A stretch of DNA of 40,347 nucleotides from a virus, in the UHGV virus genome UHGV-0039399; one strand, 5' to 3'. Of the stretch, positions 16,637 to 26,711 are shown piece after piece. The position numbers and the translations under genes are program-made. Position 1 is the first letter of the stretch, and the number at the start of each line of letters is the position of its first letter. The notes beneath the pieces were generated by a model. That model searched no databases. It worked only from the letters and a program-made list of their open reading frames with translations, and was not told the DNA's origin.

Positions 16637-16854
16637 TGGATAAGATCGGCGCAATACTCATTAATCGCGAGCAAGTGCAAAAAATGTTGGGCGGGCTTAG
16701 TAAGTCGGCGTTTTTTAAACTGGTTAAGAAGTGGAAGGATTCAGGTACTCCATTCCCTGAACCCGTTAAGGGGATGCCAGCATTAAAGCGCGGCGGTTAT
16801 CTTTACCGTTATCAGGATGTTATTTCATTTTGTAAATCAATGGGCTTCATGTAG
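16636..16854 (+). CDS. excisionase-like / AlpA-type small DNA-binding protein
   Basis: 72-aa protein with the excisionase-type HTH pattern (INREQVQKMLGGLSKSAFFKLVKK); adjacent to int, 3' ends overlap by 43 bp. Confidence 0.6.
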   Translation: MDKIGAILINREQVQKMLGGLSKSAFFKLVKKWKDSGTPFPEPVKGMPALKRGGYLYRYQDVISFCKSMGFM

Positions 16855-18011
16855 TAATCAGCCAGTTTATTCATCGCCTCGATTTGCTCCCTCACATAGT
16901 CATACTGATCGTATATAGCAAACATCCCCGCCAGCTTATGACCCAAAACCTTTTCCGCGACATGAGGCGCAACGCCAAGCGCTGAAAGGTTTGTCCTCAC
17001 GGTGCGGCGTAGATCGTGACACGACCACGGCTCGCCGCCCATCCTCATCATTAAATCCCTCGCTGCTGTTTTCGGCACGCTTCTGTCCACCGCAACATCC
17101 CTTCCAGAAAGCACAGGAACGAAGACAAAATCAAAGCTATGTAGATCCATAGCCTCACGCAATAAAGCCACGCTAACGTTCGATAAACCGCGTTTAAACT
17201 CATTCCTGTTCTTACTCAATGCACCAGGAACAGTCCACACGCAGCTATCAAGATCGAAATGCTCGCGCCTTGCGTTTGTCAGTTCGCTTGTCCTGCACCC
17301 GGTAAATATAATCAGCTTCATCAATATCTGGTTCAGTCGCGCCATTTTTGAACTATCTACAAGGCCGATTAGACGGTGGATCTCCTGTATTGACAAAACT
17401 CGCTTGCCTTGCGCTGGTTTTTTGCCTACGTCTTTAACGCACAGCAATGATATATCGTCACGATCCACGCGGCGGCGGCGAATGGCGTATTTTATTACGG
17501 CCTTCATTCTGTTGAGAACTATGCCTGCCTGAACTGGTGCGCCACCATTAGCTACCTTCCTAAAAACTCCCTCCCACATCATAGCGTCCATATCATCTAC
17601 AATATAGCTACCGTATGGTTTTATGACGTGCTTACCTAACATGGACTCAACCTGCTTATAGTTGACCATGTTCCTTGCCTGCGGCGATTCCATGTACTCC
17701 CTTACAATATCCTCAACCGTCGCCCGTGTCGTAACTCTGGAAAGGTGCATTCTTTTTGCTACCGATGGATCTCGTCCTGAGTTTAGTAATTCTTTATGCT
17801 CCGCCACCGCCGCCCGCGCTTCTTTGAGCGTTATTTCTCCGTATGTGCCAATCTTCATCCGTCGAGGCTTGCCGTTGAATCGGTAGCGATACTGGAAAGA
17901 TATAACGCCTCGTGGGCTTATCCTGGCAGACAATCCGCCAGCGTCCGGTAATTCCTCCGGGCCGTCGTACGGCTTGCCGTGAATGTTTCGTAATTTGGTA
18001 TCTGTAAGCAT
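16812..18011 (-). CDS. int: tyrosine site-specific integrase
   Basis: 399 aa; N-terminal arm-binding-type domain; C-terminal catalytic region with HDLRRT...LGH and conserved Tyr context. Confidence 0.95.
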   Translation of the reverse strand: MLTDTKLRNIHGKPYDGPEELPDAGGLSARISPRGVISFQYRYRFNGKPRRMKIGTYGEITLKEARAAVAEHKELLNSGRDPSVAKRMHLSRVTTRATVEDIVREYMESPQARNMVNYKQVESMLGKHVIKPYGSYIVDDMDAMMWEGVFRKVANGGAPVQAGIVLNRMKAVIKYAIRRRRVDRDDISLLCVKDVGKKPAQGKRVLSIQEIHRLIGLVDSSKMARLNQILMKLIIFTGCRTSELTNARREHFDLDSCVWTVPGALSKNRNEFKRGLSNVSVALLREAMDLHSFDFVFVPVLSGRDVAVDRSVPKTAARDLMMRMGGEPWSCHDLRRTVRTNLSALGVAPHVAEKVLGHKLAGMFAIYDQYDYVREQIEAMNKLADYYMKPIDLQNEITS

Positions 18012-18324: not shown

Positions 18325-20883
18325 TTATTCTTCGCTTCCGGTTAACTGCAGGACAAGCTCTTCAAGTTTTGCGATCCGTTCATCCATGACGGCAATGTTG
18401 GCGCGTAGGCTTGCGTTTTCCTCTTCCAGTTCGGTTACGCGGTTATCTGTTTCGCGTGCCACCTGGACAAGTAAACCAGTCACCGCAGCATAGTCAACAT
18501 TGAGATAACGCGTTTCTTCGCGTAGCTCGTTGCCGTCAGTGGTCGGGCCTTGCAATGCTTCACCGTAATGAGTAAACGATCCTACCGCTTCCGGCAGCGC
18601 TTCCATGACTTCCTGAGCGATAACGCCAGCGTAAGGCAGGCCGTTTTCCTTAAGGGTGTATGTGTACCCGTTCATTTTACGGATTGCTTCGGTAGCGTCA
18701 CCTATAACCTGAATGTTGTCTTTCAGGTCGCGATCTGATGATTGATTGAGCGTAGTGCAATTTACTACGCCGTTAACCTGAAATTTAACCGTGTTATCTG
18801 TATTAAGCTGGCAGAAAAAACCGTAACCCAAGTTACTGCCACTATCTGGATCTATATAACTATATTCCAGAACAGATCCTCGAGTATCGCTACCCCAAAA
18901 CAACATTTCTAAGTTTTTTACTGCTGTTTTTTTTGTTTCGATACTAAAGCGTCTGACGAAATCAGAGTCGTAGATGGAAATTTTTTTTAATGTTGAATCC
19001 CCGTTAAGCACCTTAAGTTTAGGCACTTCTATTTCGTTATTGACAAAGTTGTAGCCAATGGCAGTCCCACCAACTGGCGTTTCCCAATGGTTTTTTTCTA
19101 TGCGCCAGTTGCCGCCGTCAAATATGAAAGCGTAGTCCGGCGCACCTTCAGGTCTGTCAGTCTCATCAAATTTAATTGTTGGGTGTGCGCTCGTCAAAGT
19201 TAATGGATTGCTTACGTTTGACATTAATTTTGCAGTTTTGCCTATAAAAGACCCTTGATTTAAAGCAAAGTCGCCGTCTTCGTTCAATCCTGCATATATG
19301 TTTATATCATTACGCTGTAGGTGAGTTGTTGCCCACGCCTTACCATCACCCCTAAACTCGGTGTAAATGCGCGTTCTTGCTCTTTGCGCTCCTGATGTAT
19401 TGCTGAGTATGCTTTGTAATATGCCTCCGTTAGTGGTTTCATTATCCGAAGAAATTACAAGATTGAGATTTTTAAATTGTGGGCTATCAGCAAAGTCTAG
19501 GGACTGAAATTTCTTCCACGCGCTCCACTCCCAGCCATTTGAAGACTGAATAATGTATTGGCGCATATAAAAAACGCCATTTATAGCATTGTAAGGGAAA
19601 TAAAGCTGAGTGCATCCTGATGCGGTATTCGCGCCGTTTTTTATAACAAGCAATGCACCAGCAGCTGCCAACGGATAGCCACGATCAGTCGTTGCAGCCG
19701 AATTCGTTGTCTGATAATAAAAACCAGAATACTCGCCGGTAAGTGTATTAATGTTGGTTTCACTTAAGGCTGATCTTTTCTCGTGCATAACTTCAAGGTT
19801 TGTGCGCGCTTGCCCTGCATTGCGTCCTGCTGTGCCGCCTTGTGCAATATCTAACGGTTTCCATTGACCGATCTCGCTATCATAAACACCCCATGCACAA
19901 TTATTGCCGATTTCAAAATAAATTTTTCCGTTGCCAGAGTAAAGGCGAGTCTGGCTATCTGCAATTTGCATTAGGCGACTAACCTCATCTTTTCTTGCGT
20001 GCCTTGTCCATTGCGGGCCTGTTGATTCGCTCCACTTATAAGTGTAAGCACTGCCGGTAATATGCCCTATAAAAAGACCAGAAAACGCCGGGACACTACC
20101 TAAAGTCGGGCAAATAAAGCCAGACAAATAGCGCTCACCTGAAGCAATAGAAGGCCACCCGGCAGCCCCTTCCATGATGCGCAGAAAGCCAAGATAGCCT
20201 GATGGGTTTCCTGAAATATCCGGGCAATCTCTTGGGTTTGAGGAAAGACCAATGCTACTCCCTACAATACCTTGCGCCTGGTTACGATAATTTAGCGCAT
20301 CGGCTGCTGATTTTGCTGCATTGGTTTCGCTGGTTGCTGCCGCTGTTTTGCTGTTGCTGGCTGCTGTTTCACTGGCTTTTGCTGCATCCTGTGACGCTTT
20401 TGCTGCGGTTGCTGAGTTCGCTGCTGCTGTTTTTGATGCCGCCGCCGCGTTTTTGTCTGATTCTGTTTTTTGGGCGTTGGCTGTTGATTTCGCTGTTTCT
20501 GCGCGAATGTCGGCAAGAAGTTGTTCCATCTGACCATCACCGCCGAACTCGTTCCACCATTCAACGGCTGTTGCAATCTCTGATTCCTTGCCCTGGTAGT
20601 AACGCAGAGTTTCGGCTACATCCTGGGCAAGCCCATCAACTGAGATCGAGTCAGAAAGCAGAATGCTAAATTTTGTCCCGGCAGCGATTGCAGGGTTAGC
20701 CGCTGGCGTTACTGACAGTTCTGTACCGCTCTTGATTTCGGTGACGGTAAAGATCTGGATAGGGTTGCTGATGGCAATAAGCGTGCAACCAACACGAATG
20801 AGAGAAAGCGGCTCGGAGAAGTTTGTCCCCGTGCCTTTAACAGTGTTGCCATTAACGGCAATTGTTCCAGTTGTGTAAATCAT
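18325..20883 (-). CDS. side tail fiber with C-terminal intramolecular chaperone (S74-type) domain
   Basis: 852 aa; Ala/Ser/Thr-rich fibrous repeats; C-terminus carries the SSDRDLKDNI motif and coiled coil typical of self-cleaving chaperone domains; GGAG RBS. Confidence 0.8.
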   Translation of the reverse strand: MIYTTGTIAVNGNTVKGTGTNFSEPLSLIRVGCTLIAISNPIQIFTVTEIKSGTELSVTPAANPAIAAGTKFSILLSDSISVDGLAQDVAETLRYYQGKESEIATAVEWWNEFGGDGQMEQLLADIRAETAKSTANAQKTESDKNAAAASKTAAANSATAAKASQDAAKASETAASNSKTAAATSETNAAKSAADALNYRNQAQGIVGSSIGLSSNPRDCPDISGNPSGYLGFLRIMEGAAGWPSIASGERYLSGFICPTLGSVPAFSGLFIGHITGSAYTYKWSESTGPQWTRHARKDEVSRLMQIADSQTRLYSGNGKIYFEIGNNCAWGVYDSEIGQWKPLDIAQGGTAGRNAGQARTNLEVMHEKRSALSETNINTLTGEYSGFYYQTTNSAATTDRGYPLAAAGALLVIKNGANTASGCTQLYFPYNAINGVFYMRQYIIQSSNGWEWSAWKKFQSLDFADSPQFKNLNLVISSDNETTNGGILQSILSNTSGAQRARTRIYTEFRGDGKAWATTHLQRNDINIYAGLNEDGDFALNQGSFIGKTAKLMSNVSNPLTLTSAHPTIKFDETDRPEGAPDYAFIFDGGNWRIEKNHWETPVGGTAIGYNFVNNEIEVPKLKVLNGDSTLKKISIYDSDFVRRFSIETKKTAVKNLEMLFWGSDTRGSVLEYSYIDPDSGSNLGYGFFCQLNTDNTVKFQVNGVVNCTTLNQSSDRDLKDNIQVIGDATEAIRKMNGYTYTLKENGLPYAGVIAQEVMEALPEAVGSFTHYGEALQGPTTDGNELREETRYLNVDYAAVTGLLVQVARETDNRVTELEEENASLRANIAVMDERIAKLEELVLQLTGSEE

Positions 20884-20916
20884 CGCAATGACTCCATTAT
20901 GTTAATTAACGGAATA

Positions 20917-20925
20917 ATTCTACCA
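20917..20925 (-). promoter_or_regulatory. candidate extended -10 (TGgTAGAAT) for the tail fiber gene
   Basis: Minus-strand TGGTAGAAT about 30 nt upstream of the start codon, in the divergent intergenic region. Confidence 0.3.
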
Positions 20926-21051
20926 TTTTGTGATCTATGTTGCATTTTCTGTTCACACAAAACGTATTTGTTGATTTATATCAATATACGAAATGTGGTT
21001 TTGTCGGATATTTAAGCCACCGGATGAGCAAGCAAGAATGAGGATTCAAAA

Positions 21052-21300
21052 ATGAAAAACGTGTTCAAAGTGGTTTTGTTCGCTGCGGCTGTAGCTCTTA
21101 CTGGCTGTGCTGTTGACAAAGAGGCTGCATTGCATAACCTGCCGAATAGCGGAGTGATTCCACAAGATGTTGTATATGATGGAAGCGGTCATCTTGTCTA
21201 TGACACTGAAAAACTGCCGTATACTGGGCAATGGTGTCATGAACTCGATCACAACATGCGCCGCATCGGTAGCCCTTCGAACTGTGTAGCTAACTACTAA
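21052..21300 (+). CDS. small lipoprotein, candidate Cor/Llp-like superinfection exclusion protein
   Basis: 82 aa; signal peptide with lipobox LTGC; GAGGA RBS; opposite strand between J and the tail fiber gene, ending in a strong terminator. Confidence 0.6.
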   Translation: MKNVFKVVLFAAAVALTGCAVDKEAALHNLPNSGVIPQDVVYDGSGHLVYDTEKLPYTGQWCHELDHNMRRIGSPSNCVANY

Positions 21301-21304
21301 AAGA

Positions 21305-21335
21305 AAACCCCGCGCGAAGCGGGGTTGTTTTTTTA
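21305..21335. terminator. bidirectional rho-independent terminator (lipoprotein gene / J)
   Basis: CCCCGC-gcgaa-GCGGGG hairpin followed by a T-run on the plus strand and an A-run/U-tract on the minus strand. Confidence 0.7.
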
Positions 21336-24300
21336 TCCTGAGAATGAACCGGAACCGCGCGACACAATGACTGTCGGCGATTGTATATAAGCCCCCTTGC
21401 TATTTTGAGCGGATACCTTAATGGTAACTGTAACGCTCTTGCTAGTTACTGCTGATGAATGCATAACAAGGCGCTCAGTGCCATCTACCATCGAGGCTTT
21501 TGATGAACCGCCGATCGTTATTGTGCAACCACCATAACCTTTAACGTTAGCCATAACACAAACATGTCTGCTATGTGCAGCGTCTGACGTGTCGGTGTAT
21601 GTGATTGTTTTTACTAGCTCACCATCCCTTGTTCTGCTAACGTCAGATCCCGTATACATGTTCGCAACGTCACCGATAAAGGTCTTCGCCTCAAGTGACC
21701 CTGAGAACTTACCGCTGCTGGCATACACGGCCCCCCTTACCGTTACGTTGTTAAGTTCCGCGCTACCGTTTTTGTTGATCATCCAGCCGGAAGACCCTGC
21801 TGCGTAGTTGGTTGACTGTATCTGCTGTGCAATTTTAGCAGTAGTAATGGCTGCATCTGCAATCTTAGCCGTTCCTATTGATGCGTTTTTAATAAACGCT
21901 TCTTTTACATACATTGCGCCGTTAGACACATAGAAAGGCGCTGTATATGTGCCGTTTGCTGCGGTCATTAACACGAAGCGGTCAACGAGGAAAATACACT
22001 GCGATTGAACGTTAGTACCGTTGCCAGTTAAACCAAGTGACATACCTGTTGCGTATTTCATGCCGTTGTTGTCGGTTGCCAGTTTGATGGAGTACGTCGC
22101 ATCGACATTACCCTTGAAGTCGGTTAACGCTTTCGACGTCGTTTGTATCGCTGTTGTGTTCCCGTTAACGGTCACTGTTAGCTGATCGATTTTGTTTGAT
22201 AATGCCTCGTCAGCCGTTGCCATAGCCTGTGACCATTCTGTAATGCTTGAGTTTACAGATTCGAAAGACGCTGAGATCTGGCCGAATTTTTCCGCGCTTG
22301 ATGCCTCATGCGTAGAAAGCGCCGTTGATACCTCAGACACTTTCGAGTTAATCGTACTGGTAAGCGATGAGTTAAGACTATTTATCGCGTCAGTGCGTGC
22401 CTTCGTTTCGTCTGCAATGGCCTTGTCAATACGAGTCACGTTGCTTGTAACCTTGCCATCAAGTGTTGAAATTGACGCATTCACGCCACTGATGGCTTGT
22501 GCTCTGGCACTGGCCTCGTCAGCAATTGCCTGGTCCAGTCTGCTAACTTCGGATTCAGTGTTGCTTTCAAGCGTGTTAATGCTTGCGTTCACGCCACTGA
22601 TTGCCTCGCTGCGTGCGTTTGTCTCGTCAGCGATAGCCTTGTCGAGACGGGAAACGCTGGCGTCGGTTTTCTTGTCTAGATCCGTGATCGATGCTTTTAC
22701 CACGCCAATTGCTTCGGCTGTAGCCTTTTTCTCTTCAGCGATAACACTGTCAATACGATCAATCTGCGCGTTTGTTTCCTTGCGACCTTTCTTGTACTGG
22801 GCCGTAAGGGTAACGCGCGTGTTGGTCTGAGCGATTGAGTTATTAATCAGCGCAATCGAAGCGTTTTGCAGGCTTGCTTTTGTCTGATTTATATCATCGC
22901 TGTTTTTGTCAACGCTATTTTCAATGCTGCCGATCTCCGCGTTAATGCCTGAGATTGCTTCAGCTCTGGCGCTTGATTCGTCTGCAATAGCCTGATCCAA
23001 ACGTTTAACGCTGGCGTTTGTGCTGTTTTCAAGCGTTGTCAAATCAGCATTAACGTCTGTTATTGCTGCGCTTCTTGCCTGCGTCTCGTCAGCGATAGCC
23101 TTGTCGAGACGGGAAACGCTGGCGTCAGTTTTGCTTTCAAGGTTGCTTATTGATGCTTTAACATCGCTCACAGCCTGGGCGCGGGCGCTGGCCTCGTCGG
23201 CAATCGACTGATCAAGGCGTTTAACTTCTGAATTGGTGTTACCTTCAAGTGTGTCAATACTTGCTTTGACTCCGCTGATTGCGTCAGTGCGTGCCTTCGT
23301 TTCGTCGGCGATAGCTTTATCTATGCGCGTTACATTGCTTGTTACCTTGCTATCAAGCGTTGAAATTGACGCATTCACGCCACTGATGGCTTCAGTTCTT
23401 GCGCTGGTTTCGTCTGCTATTGCTTGATCCAGGCGTTTCACGCTGGCGTCAGTTTTCTTGTCTAGCGATGAGACACTCGCGTTAACGTCACTAACTGCCT
23501 GTGTGCGGGCGTTCGTTTCGTCTGCGATGGCCTGATCAAGTCTGTTGACGCTGGCATCGGTTTTCTTGTCTAGATTGCTTATTGATGCGTTAACGCCGTT
23601 GATTGCTTCAGCGCGGGCGCTTGCCTCGTCAGCCACTGCGCGTTCCACGCTGGAAATCTGACCCTTAAGGTTAGAATCCATCGTGTTCATTTCTGCAGTG
23701 ATGGTTTCCAGTGATTCCGCTGTAGCCTTTTTCTCTTCAGCAATAACGTTGTCAATGCGGTCAATTTCAGCCTTCGTCTCTGTCCTGCCTTTCTTGTACT
23801 GAGCAGTGAGAGTAACCCGCGTGTTGGTCTGAGCAAGGGAGTTGTTGATAAGTGCCAACGACGCGTTTTGCAGGCTTGCTTTTGCTTGCGCCAGTTCACT
23901 GCCAACTTTTTCGCTAGATACCTCCAGAGAATCTATTCTTGCCTCATGATGTCCAATATCGTCGGCGTTTTCTCCAACCTTTTTGTAAAGATCTTCCGTC
24001 TCTTTTTTCAGTGTGTCCGTGTCAGCTTTTATGGCCCCTGTTTCTGTGATTAGGCCGTCCGTATCAGTCCTCAATTCGTCAGTGATGTTTATCAGGTTGT
24101 CAGTTTCAACCCTCAAATCGTCAGTGATGTTTGTCAGGTTGTCAGTTGCAGTTTTGAGGTTGTCAGTAGCGTTTTTAAGGTCATTTGTAGCGCTTTCGAT
24201 AAGGTCGGCACGGTCGCCAAGATCTTTAATGTCGCCGATCATGCCCTTGAACTGTTCTGACTCCATGACGTCCTTCATCACGTAGTCGCTGATTTCGTCG

Positions 24301-26711
24301 AAGTTTTCAGTCGGTTTTCCTGATGCCTCAACAAAGTCTGACACACCAAAGGCATTACGCGTGCGCACATAAACGTAATATTTATGGCCCGTGTTCATGC
24401 CGCCAAAAGTCCATTGGTAGCCGCGCCCGGTGAATTGCGCCAGCATGGTTACTTTTGATGGGTCTGTGATCTGGTTTTCACCTGAGTAATAAAACTCGTA
24501 TGCTGTATCAGTGGTCAGGGTTGTTTTGCTGATCGGATATACCGTTGCCTGGAAGACACCGGGAACCCAATTGACTCCAATCGGGGCTGCTGGCGCACCA
24601 ATAACCAGGTCAACAATACTTTCAGCACCCTTCATGCCAGTGTCATTACGCCCGCGAATACCAAGCGTGTAGCTGCCAGCATCCAGGCCATAAAAATCAT
24701 AGCGGTAATTCGTGGTTTCATAAGTTGCCACAATGCGGCCTTCGGTGTTATATACGCGTATTTCAAAGGTCAGGCGATGCGTTGTCGTCTGTGTTTCCCA
24801 TGTTGCGCGGCACTGGACTGTCTCAGAACCAACGTTTAACACCTTCAGATTTTCAATGTTCGGCACGCGGAAGTGATTAAGCGTGTCGTTGTTTACCTCG
24901 AAGATTGCGCCTTCATCAACTACAGCCTGTTTGTGCGGATCGTGCTGTGCAGCCTCAATGGTGTACACGCTGTTATTTTCGGTTTCCGCTACGCTGGTAA
25001 TTCGGCACAGAACAGGTTTTGCTGATTCAGTCGATACAGCAAACACGGTTCCGTTACGAATCCATGCTGGCGCTGACGCAAGGGTAATATTGTTTCCGTT
25101 AACCCCAGTGATCTGATGTTTTTTAAACTTGCCGTCGCTATCCAGTAAGCTGATAGTGTCGCCAGCCGCCACCAGATCAGAATCAACCTTGTCTACAGTT
25201 ATCACTTTCCCGTTATTCGCTACGATGCGACCGCCTAAACGAGCGGCTGCGCGGTTATTGTCGAGTATCTCGATAATATCCCCTGGGGTGAAGTGAATTG
25301 CGTCACGGGCCATTTTAAACGTGAATTTTGAGGGTTCGCGTTTTGCTGTTTCTATCAGCCATTTGCCAGCGCGGTACGCCTGCCCGCGTGACGTGCAACC
25401 GAAAGCCTCCAACGTGGTTTCGTTGTAACCATCGCGGGCGATCAGTTCGTCATCTGCCACGTATTCTTTTGATTGTTCCCAACCGTTTTCAGGGTCAGTC
25501 CATGACACGATAACGGCGTTGTAAGATTCTGCGCGAGCGATACTTGAACGAGTGAACGCGCCATCAACGACGTTTGCATTTGTGATAGTGGCAATTGGAT
25601 CTTGCGGTGCATCAATCATCACCGTAAGGCGCTGCCCGTCCCATAACGCGATACCACGGAACATGCCTGCAATGTTATCCAGCAAGTCGCGGGCGCTCAT
25701 TTGCTCCGTGATGTAAGCGTTAAGCGTCATGCGTGGTTCAAGGCCGCCGTAACCGTCGTTTACCAACTGGTCGCAGTATTGAGAAAGCGTATACAGTGCG
25801 CCGTCATCAACGTCGATGTAACCAGCGTGGCGGGCAAGCCCGAAGCGTTCATTTTTAACCAGATACCGGAAAAGCCACGCAGGGTTGTTGGTGTATGCCT
25901 TTTTGAAGCCACCAAGCCATAAGCCTGAATACGTGCGCGTTTCAGGGTCGTAGTTATCAGGCACATCAACAATCAGACCGCGCATGTGATAGGTGCGTGT
26001 CGGGGTATCAGTATACTGATCGTGGTCAATTACCGCGCCTGCTACAGCGGTGTGAGGATAAGATAAATTATCGTCGATTATCTCGCTGTAACTGCCCCAT
26101 CTGGTGTCATTGCGAAGTAGATCGCTTTTGCTGTCTGGCGTTACGCGACGAACGCGAATATCAAACGGTTTTTCATCCGGCGCCTGGATGATATGCGCTT
26201 CCATGTACTCGCCGCTTTGTTTACCAGGGCCAATTGTAATGCCTTTAACCAGTGACCACGATGTTGAGGATGAAGGCTTAACGTCAACCGCCAGCGTAAC
26301 CGATGTGTTGTATTGATTGCCCTTATCATCTGACTGAACCAAAGCATCAACGCCGAGATTCAGCCTTACGCGGTTAACGTTTGGATCTGAAACGGTTCGG
26401 ATTATTGGCGTATCGTGAGTTACTTTTGCGTTAACAATAACGGTTGATTCAATGGCGTTGAATCCGTTGATTGGTGACTGGTCAGCCGTACCATTACGCC
26501 ACGCCACGCTAACGCCAGGGACTGATGTACCTCCGTTGGCGTCAGTGATTGGGCTGTCATTAAGCATAACGCTGTTTAATGGCGCTTTCTGGTTTACAGG
26601 TCCGTAGATTGGGCCTTCGCTGAGAATGTCCAAAACGCGATAAAACTGTTTATGAAACAGGTTATCGTTTAATAATGTTGGTGTTTTGGCTTTGCCGCCG
26701 CCGCTACTCAT
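21333..26711 (-). CDS. J: central tail fiber / host specificity protein J with expanded coiled-coil stalk
   Basis: 1792 aa; N-terminal region and C-terminal domain align with my recollection of lambda gpJ; a roughly 660-aa repetitive coiled-coil insertion lies between them. Confidence 0.9.
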   Translation of the reverse strand: MSSGGGKAKTPTLLNDNLFHKQFYRVLDILSEGPIYGPVNQKAPLNSVMLNDSPITDANGGTSVPGVSVAWRNGTADQSPINGFNAIESTVIVNAKVTHDTPIIRTVSDPNVNRVRLNLGVDALVQSDDKGNQYNTSVTLAVDVKPSSSTSWSLVKGITIGPGKQSGEYMEAHIIQAPDEKPFDIRVRRVTPDSKSDLLRNDTRWGSYSEIIDDNLSYPHTAVAGAVIDHDQYTDTPTRTYHMRGLIVDVPDNYDPETRTYSGLWLGGFKKAYTNNPAWLFRYLVKNERFGLARHAGYIDVDDGALYTLSQYCDQLVNDGYGGLEPRMTLNAYITEQMSARDLLDNIAGMFRGIALWDGQRLTVMIDAPQDPIATITNANVVDGAFTRSSIARAESYNAVIVSWTDPENGWEQSKEYVADDELIARDGYNETTLEAFGCTSRGQAYRAGKWLIETAKREPSKFTFKMARDAIHFTPGDIIEILDNNRAAARLGGRIVANNGKVITVDKVDSDLVAAGDTISLLDSDGKFKKHQITGVNGNNITLASAPAWIRNGTVFAVSTESAKPVLCRITSVAETENNSVYTIEAAQHDPHKQAVVDEGAIFEVNNDTLNHFRVPNIENLKVLNVGSETVQCRATWETQTTTHRLTFEIRVYNTEGRIVATYETTNYRYDFYGLDAGSYTLGIRGRNDTGMKGAESIVDLVIGAPAAPIGVNWVPGVFQATVYPISKTTLTTDTAYEFYYSGENQITDPSKVTMLAQFTGRGYQWTFGGMNTGHKYYVYVRTRNAFGVSDFVEASGKPTENFDEISDYVMKDVMESEQFKGMIGDIKDLGDRADLIESATNDLKNATDNLKTATDNLTNITDDLRVETDNLINITDELRTDTDGLITETGAIKADTDTLKKETEDLYKKVGENADDIGHHEARIDSLEVSSEKVGSELAQAKASLQNASLALINNSLAQTNTRVTLTAQYKKGRTETKAEIDRIDNVIAEEKKATAESLETITAEMNTMDSNLKGQISSVERAVADEASARAEAINGVNASISNLDKKTDASVNRLDQAIADETNARTQAVSDVNASVSSLDKKTDASVKRLDQAIADETSARTEAISGVNASISTLDSKVTSNVTRIDKAIADETKARTDAISGVKASIDTLEGNTNSEVKRLDQSIADEASARAQAVSDVKASISNLESKTDASVSRLDKAIADETQARSAAITDVNADLTTLENSTNASVKRLDQAIADESSARAEAISGINAEIGSIENSVDKNSDDINQTKASLQNASIALINNSIAQTNTRVTLTAQYKKGRKETNAQIDRIDSVIAEEKKATAEAIGVVKASITDLDKKTDASVSRLDKAIADETNARSEAISGVNASINTLESNTESEVSRLDQAIADEASARAQAISGVNASISTLDGKVTSNVTRIDKAIADETKARTDAINSLNSSLTSTINSKVSEVSTALSTHEASSAEKFGQISASFESVNSSITEWSQAMATADEALSNKIDQLTVTVNGNTTAIQTTSKALTDFKGNVDATYSIKLATDNNGMKYATGMSLGLTGNGTNVQSQCIFLVDRFVLMTAANGTYTAPFYVSNGAMYVKEAFIKNASIGTAKIADAAITTAKIAQQIQSTNYAAGSSGWMINKNGSAELNNVTVRGAVYASSGKFSGSLEAKTFIGDVANMYTGSDVSRTRDGELVKTITYTDTSDAAHSRHVCVMANVKGYGGCTITIGGSSKASMVDGTERLVMHSSAVTSKSVTVTIKVSAQNSKGAYIQSPTVIVSRGSGSFSG
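22190..24200. repeat. in-frame tandem repeats within J (84-bp/28-aa units, acidic heptads, and a duplicated block about 1 kb apart)
   Basis: Repeated protein unit RLDQAIADETxARxEAISGVNASISxLDxKTDASV about 12 times; the anchor KASLQNAS(L/I)ALINNS(L/I)AQTNTRVTLTAQYKKGR occurs twice (DNA near 22880 and 23880). Confidence 0.8.

Follow-up and report, generated by a model that had tools for sequence, protein, structure and literature searches.

A type-C Lpp lipoprotein gene beside the J tail-tip gene of an mEpimmI-group coliphage, a likely LamB-directed superinfection-exclusion gene

The closest described systems are the small lipoproteins of the mEpimmI coliphages. These phages carry lipoproteins of four sequence types, with type C found in mEp010, mEp013, mEp044, and mEp554, and none of these four type C carriers can infect cells in which lamB is knocked out (Negrete-Mendez et al. 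2025, PMC11893012). When Lpp010 was expressed from Ptac (plasmid pLpp010) in W3110, mEp010, mEp044, mEp554, and, unexpectedly, lambda were excluded, but mEp013 was not; the type A protein Lpp021 excludes the OmpA-dependent phages mEp021 and mEp515 (PMC11893012). The published readout was plaque formation in spot assays (PMC11893012). Maffei et al. 2021 and van den Berg et al. 2022 also drew attention to putative exclusion lipoproteins encoded downstream of gpJ in LamB-targeting phages; of Bas23 and other phages that target LamB, the latter wrote that they "likely do have SE lipoproteins" (PMC9586334). How a lipoprotein could block LamB was left open by van den Berg et al., LamB having no plug and no known allostery (PMC9586334).

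We analyzed a window of 40,347 nucleotides, i.e., the whole stretch of viral DNA at its full length, in which one such lipoprotein gene lies between the genes for J and for a tail fiber. The three genes are as follows.

21052 to 21300, plus strand: lpp gene (type-C Lpp), ATG start, 82 codons, identified from the ORF list, tblastn, and PHROG 12984
21333 to 26711, minus strand: J tail-tip/host-specificity gene, 1792 aa, with Pfam FNIII-A_GpJ, Phage-tail_3, Ig_J, and Phage_Tail_Tip
18325 to 20883, minus strand: side tail-fiber gene, 852 aa, with Pfam Peptidase_S74 (E = 2.5e-14)

The lpp product was 100% identical over 82 residues to gp116 (Lpp010, WWQ70279.1) of mEp010 (PP180001, tblastn) and 93 to 99% identical to its counterparts in mEp013, mEp044, mEp554, and MagusPhagus; its mature part was identical to that of the mEp013 protein. 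The function of lpp as a lipoprotein that excludes LamB phages is thus already known, since the exclusion of mEp010, mEp044, mEp554, and lambda was published for the identical protein, and an expression test of the kind that an initial annotation had proposed for this ORF is likewise already on record (PMC11893012). Our overall reading, which we hold with high confidence, is that lpp encodes a type-C Lpp superinfection-exclusion lipoprotein and that, in an mEpimmI phage, the gene is a "moron" matched to the receptor and accompanied by a J tip specific for LamB.

Over most of its length, the window matched the mEpimmI phages at 86 to 94% nucleotide identity, and the matched segments included J, the tail assembly genes, the integrase, the replication genes, and the cI region. 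On these matches, the window is an mEpimmI-group phage, i.e., a Nus-dependent, non-lambdoid, temperate coliphage. It is circularly permuted with respect to the GenBank records, and its tail-fiber gene, attP region, and integrase gene are contiguous, which indicates a phage genome in circular or vegetative form and not a prophage end. On this junction, and because the searched 16-27 kb stretch was absent from every complete E. coli genome, a prophage integrated between host sequences was set aside. The integrase is a tyrosine integrase (16812 to 18011, minus strand) with Arm-DNA-bind_3 and Phage_integrase domains, and 313 bp separate it from the end of the tail-fiber gene. The fiber itself was closest to that of mEp013 (80% identical) and carries an S74 intramolecular chaperone at its C-terminus; its gene adjoins the slot occupied by lpp.

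The lpp gene encodes an 82-aa prolipoprotein with a predicted mature form of 64 aa. Its N-terminus, read directly from the sequence, is MKNVFKVVLFAAAVALTG followed by CAVDK..., and the parts of the protein are encoded as follows.

21052 to 21105, plus strand: lpp signal peptide, residues 1 to 18, read from the sequence
21097 to 21108, plus strand: lipobox L16-T17-G18-C19, read from the sequence, fitting the pattern [LVI][ASTVI][GAS]C
21142 to 21297, plus strand: conserved mature core, residues 31 to 82 (52 residues), from invariant and near-invariant alignment columns
21235 to 21237, plus strand: Cys62, conserved in nearly all homologues
21283 to 21285, plus strand: Cys78, conserved in nearly all homologues

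The signal peptide consists of an n-region with K2 and K6, an h-region (VVLFAAAVA), and then the lipobox; when all six frames were scanned by regex, lpp was the sole ORF with a signal peptide plus lipobox in the 40-kb window. Cys19 is predicted to be the lipidated N-terminus of mature Lpp. Lipoproteins must carry Asp at position +2 to avoid the Lol system; position +2 of Lpp is Ala20, with no Asp inner-membrane retention signal, and sorting of Lpp to the outer membrane is predicted. In an alignment of 23 homologues, C19 was invariant and position +2 was A, G, or S in all 23.

Residues 20 to 30 form a variable tether of about 11 residues, and the signal peptide varies among homologues too. The core motifs of the alignment (PNSGVIP...DTEKLPxTGQWC62...RIGSPSNC78xxxY) are all present here, and Cys62 and Cys78 probably form a disulfide in the core. 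AlphaFold2 returned mean pLDDT values of 54.9 for full-length Lpp (with 23 homologues) and 52.0 for mature Lpp (with 24 homologues); at these values the models are unreliable and too poor to reveal a disulfide or to inform the mechanism proposed below. An antisense ORF of 68 aa (21046 to 21252, minus strand) was rejected as a gene, as it is without homology and overlaps the conserved, experimentally functional lpp.

The Lpp family is small and well delimited. Lpp matched PHROG 12984 "lipoprotein" (E = 1e-26, residues 7 to 82), tblastn located lpp in 44 phage records, and the family made up 25 clusters when 5.8 billion proteins were grouped at 90% identity; the 82-aa ORF with signal peptide and LTGC lipobox that the initial annotation described is accordingly real. 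A profile search of 1.84 billion representatives (50% identity) yielded three genuine clusters, and two giant repetitive proteins that appeared in the same search were regarded as spurious members. Lpp had no match in Pfam at E ≤ 10, none in PADLOC, and signal-peptide noise only in NCBIfam. The three genuine clusters and these null results together indicate a family without visible distant relatives. Among complete E. coli genomes, 10 of 5426 carried lpp; prophage copies in RefSeq E. coli genomes are labeled "hypothetical protein".

The carriers have unrelated siphovirus backbones: the mEpimmI temperate phages, Seuratvirus (CAjan, Seurat, and Bas21-24), Nonagvirus (9g), the Dhillonvirus-like phages EP23 and PNS1, and three metagenome contigs (two phage-like, of ~44 kb, and a third of ~10 kb). 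A contig from the assembly of a Salmonella sample also carries a homologue, adjacent to a gpJ-type gene. In the core, identity was 73% with CAjan and 67% with 9g; the tether did not align. EP23 (NC_016566, 21711 to 21869) and PNS1 (NC_073063, 9759 to 9917) encode core homologues at 68 to 70% identity where no gene is annotated. In every locus that we examined (six mEpimmI-group phages, CAjan, 9g, the three metagenome contigs, and the Salmonella contig), lpp was convergent with J and lay 27 to 34 bp past the J stop, and a tail-fiber gene followed lpp wherever the contig reached beyond it. The same convergent post-J layout was seen in 10 loci besides that of the window, and these represent at least four phage groups.

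In the window, lpp is flanked by the following elements.

21040 to 21044, plus strand: Shine-Dalgarno sequence GAGGA, 7 nt before the lpp ATG, invariant in five mEpimmI phages
20884 to 21051, no strand assigned: lpp/tail-fiber intergenic region of 168 bp between the divergent genes, presumed lpp promoter region
21298 to 21335, no strand assigned: bidirectional intrinsic terminator of the convergent lpp and J genes, with its stem-loop at 21306 to 21326

The gap between lpp and J is 32 bp (stops at 21300 and 21333) and contains the terminator common to both. Its stem-loop has 8 bp, 6 of them G-C, with T-runs on both strands, and the extended hairpin has a folding energy of -19.6 kcal/mol (z = -4.2 against shuffles); a matching terminator is annotated in mEp010, mEp013, mEp044, and mEp554. 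Both neighbors of lpp are on the minus strand, and the placement of the ORF between J and the tail-fiber gene on the opposite strand, behind a strong bidirectional terminator, was therefore correctly described at the outset. The promoter attributed to it was not recovered: neither a standard scan nor a relaxed hexamer scan of the plus strand of 20884 to 21051 gave a sigma-70 consensus match. Across five mEpimmI phages, conservation of this region is 97%, but these are close relatives. Near 21019, the lpp leader is without a 9-bp stretch present in the other four mEpimmI phages; the missing 9 bp match a single unit of a short, directly repeated sequence, ACCGGAT(A/G)A (alignment columns 150 to 158). 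The sole promoter-like site in the intergenic region is on the minus strand (20945 to 20917: ATGCAA and TAGAAT spaced by 17 nt, with a TG extended -10) and is oriented toward the tail-fiber gene, which may thus be transcribed from a promoter of its own beyond the J terminator.

The receptor-binding tip of J comprises its last ~110 aa (encoded at 21336 to 21665, minus strand). Over these 110 aa, the window tip was 95.5% identical to that of mEp013, with 5 positions differing. Identity was 66 to 78% to the three excluded mEp phages (mEp010, 66%), 61 to 64% to HK97, 9g, and KurtStettler (HK97 and KurtStettler, both 61%), 28% to CAjan, and about 19% to lambda. From its likeness to the LamB-dependent mEp013 and KurtStettler, the window tip appears to be of the LamB type, and the tip and lpp together predict that the window phage uses LamB. 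J is a mosaic: residues 1 to 1500 are 98 to 100% identical to mEp554, and over the last ~290 residues the nearest match is mEp013. Judged by these identities, J is a recombinant with a breakpoint near codon ~1500, at about position 22200 of the window. Residues ~820 to 1500 (~22200 to 24300) are coiled-coil-like, with degenerate repeats of the form RLDQAIADE..AR..A.S.VNASIS.L, and the length of this stretch varies among the mEpimmI phages; in mEp010 and mEp013, the gaps reach ~85 residues in a 100-residue block. In the DNA of J, TRF found only a short 42-bp repeat (24069 to 24150).

The initial annotation had named the lipoprotein a candidate Cor/Llp-type exclusion factor, with FhuA as the speculative receptor. 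The size class, the lipobox, the Cys near the C-terminus, and a convergent post-J position like that of T1 cor all fit such a reading. Beyond the signal peptide, however, Lpp had no homology to Cor: PHROG 1119 (Cor) matched at E = 0.25 over residues 1 to 22 only, which are signal peptide, and hhalign of the Lpp family alignment against T1 Cor aligned 21 signal-peptide columns and nothing more. A comparison of Lpp with all PDB chains (phmmer and profile hmmsearch, in a 2026 copy that should include the FhuA-Llp entry) gave only chance matches (E > 0.5). Moreover, the closest characterized relatives are LamB dependent, and FhuA has no part in the published data: the mEp relatives need LamB, lambda is excluded, and LamB is the terminal receptor listed for Bas21-24 in the BASEL table, with KurtStettler also LamB dependent (PMC8594841). 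Bas21-24 all carry an Lpp homologue (tblastn), and the LptD-dependent Bas25 was not among the 40 matches listed. The receptor class for Lpp is LamB and not FhuA, and we regard membership in the Cor/Llp family with blocking of FhuA as extremely improbable. What stands of the original proposal is exclusion of the Cor kind, without sequence kinship to Cor or Llp, and a cor-type slot convergent to J with a common terminator, as in T1; the phage in which that slot lies is a non-lambdoid mEpimmI phage and not a lambdoid one.

We propose the following mechanism for LamB-directed exclusion. The precursor would be exported, lipidated at Cys19, and cleaved by Lsp; with Ala at +2, the sorting rule would hand it to Lol for delivery to the outer membrane. 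There, the 52-residue core would sit on its ~11-residue tether, probably stabilized by the Cys62-Cys78 disulfide. For the identical protein, others have shown that the expressing cells resist mEp010, mEp044, mEp554, and lambda but not mEp013. The target of Lpp would probably be LamB itself and not a phage protein. Action at the receptor is supported by the exclusion of lambda, although its tip is only ~19% identical to that of the window phage, and the conservation of the core relative to the J tip (73% versus 28% identity to CAjan) fits a conserved host target. The constant convergent placement of lpp just past J, the LamB dependence of Bas21-24, and the unrelated lipoprotein in the same slot of the OmpA-dependent mEp021 point the same way. 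In the last step, to which we would give about even chances, Lpp would bind the periplasmic side of LamB, as Llp does on FhuA, and the surface recognized by J would be partly altered or masked, blocking adsorption or triggering for most LamB-specific tips. Our preference for the periplasmic face comes from the signal for Lol sorting, the shortness of the tether, and the precedent of Llp, although with neither plug nor known allostery in LamB, an Llp-like mechanism there would be without precedent.

mEp013 needs LamB yet escapes Lpp010, so LamB must stay present and at least partly accessible on Lpp-expressing cells, which favors partial masking or a conformational change over depletion or full occlusion. 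The same escape would also be accounted for if Lpp were flipped to the cell surface and sterically covered part of the LamB loops, since the masking would again be partial. Surface exposure was raised by van den Berg et al. for receptors that are not TonB dependent, with LamB and LptD having no known allostery (PMC9586334). We consider it unlikely, given that no surface-export signal is known or visible, that the tether is short (~11 residues), and that Llp, the only solved analogue, is periplasmic (PMC9586334).

A second alternative places the block after adsorption, at tail-tip penetration or DNA transit across the periplasm or inner membrane, with mEp013 escaping through another entry route. 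Lambda and HK97 need inner-membrane factors such as ManYZ, and this dependence would suit a late block. ManYZ is mentioned in PMC11990801; interference with DNA ejection is among the possible modes of Lpp action named in PMC11893012, where plaque formation alone was measured. A late block is nevertheless improbable in our judgment. The position of lpp is tied to the 3' end of J, and the gene covaries with receptor type, not with the tape-measure genes; the residue at +2 is not Asp, and an outer-membrane rather than inner-membrane location is predicted; and mEp021, which uses OmpA, has an unrelated lipoprotein in the same slot. We therefore retain action of Lpp at LamB as the preferred reading.

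The pairing of lpp with the J tip bears on which phages are kept out. Both the window phage and mEp013 pair an Lpp010-type mature protein with an mEp013-type tip, and because the window tip is nearly that of mEp013, Lpp may exclude competitors and not the phage's own kind. We tentatively suggest, as a possibility that we do not favor, that the escape determinant lies in the tip and that the locus combines a shield against rival LamB phages, including lambda, with the key to the shielded LamB; this suggestion is based on one published negative result (mEp013 against Lpp010). If it is true, Lpp would be an anti-competitor weapon and not a self-exclusion device, and it would remodel only part of the LamB surface, a form of receptor jamming distinct from that of Llp on FhuA. 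A strict one-to-one pairing of lpp and J tip was rejected, as members of the family occur with two or more tip subtypes (HK97/9g/mEp and CAjan/MagusPhagus). In HK97 (NC_002167, 19032 to 19238), J leads straight to stf, with no lipoprotein gene or remnant detectable between them. HK97 thus has the tip type without lpp, which indicates that the pairing is not obligatory and that the exclusion gene is an optional add-on.

These results allow lpp to be named with confidence as the gene of a LamB-directed superinfection-exclusion lipoprotein, where several phage records and RefSeq call it a hypothetical protein or miss the gene. The remaining interest lies in how a lipoprotein of ~64 residues disables a porin that has no plug and in why the mEp013-type tip escapes. 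Being small and well conserved, and accompanied in nature by both sensitive and escaper tips, the family lends itself to work on the mechanism of LamB blockade.

Compared with known systems, the locus is closest to that of mEp010, with which it shares the identical protein, the convergent post-J position, the terminator, and the conserved upstream region. It differs from mEp010 in its J tip, which is of the mEp013 type (95.5% identity) and not of the mEp010 type (66%), in its tail fiber, and in having one 9-bp repeat fewer. The putative exclusion lipoproteins of CAjan (gp19), 9g (gp69), and Bas21-24 are homologous (67 to 73% core identity, PHROG 12984). Seuratvirus, Nonagvirus, and Dhillonvirus have the same order of J, convergent lipoprotein gene, and tail fiber, as well as the LamB receptor, but they are virulent phages with a different signal peptide and tether and with J tips 28 to 64% identical to that of the window.

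Lpp021 (mEp021 gp81, type A) occupies the same locus in the same orientation, and its exclusion has been shown experimentally; its mature sequence, by contrast, is unrelated, with no similarity beyond the signal peptide, and it is paired with an OmpA-dependent J. In mEp021, the slot (MH706966, 51741 to 52894) holds the 72-aa gp81 and then the convergent gp80, annotated as "virion structural protein / FlgL-like". On this comparison, the post-J slot behaves as an exchangeable, receptor-matched cassette. The lom gene of lambda has an analogous position but is codirectional with J and encodes 206 aa, and no Pfam Ail_Lom domain was among the Pfam results for Lpp at E ≤ 10.

Among lipoproteins without sequence kinship, Cor (T1/phi80/N15, PHROG 1119) is likewise a small outer-membrane lipoprotein that excludes phages using the carrier's receptor, and T1 cor likewise lies convergent after the J/receptor-binding-protein locus, behind a terminator; its target is FhuA, and its mature domain has no detectable homology to that of Lpp. 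T5 Llp is similar as a mature lipoprotein of ~60 residues that is encoded beside the receptor-binding gene and disables the carrier's receptor (PMC9586334); it has an intramolecular disulfide, and AlphaFold models are poor for Llp (PMC9586334), as they are for Lpp. The receptor on which Llp acts, however, is a TonB-dependent transporter whose plug it jams, and LamB is without a plug (PMC9586334). Lpp is a functional analogue of Cor and Llp, not a member of either family.
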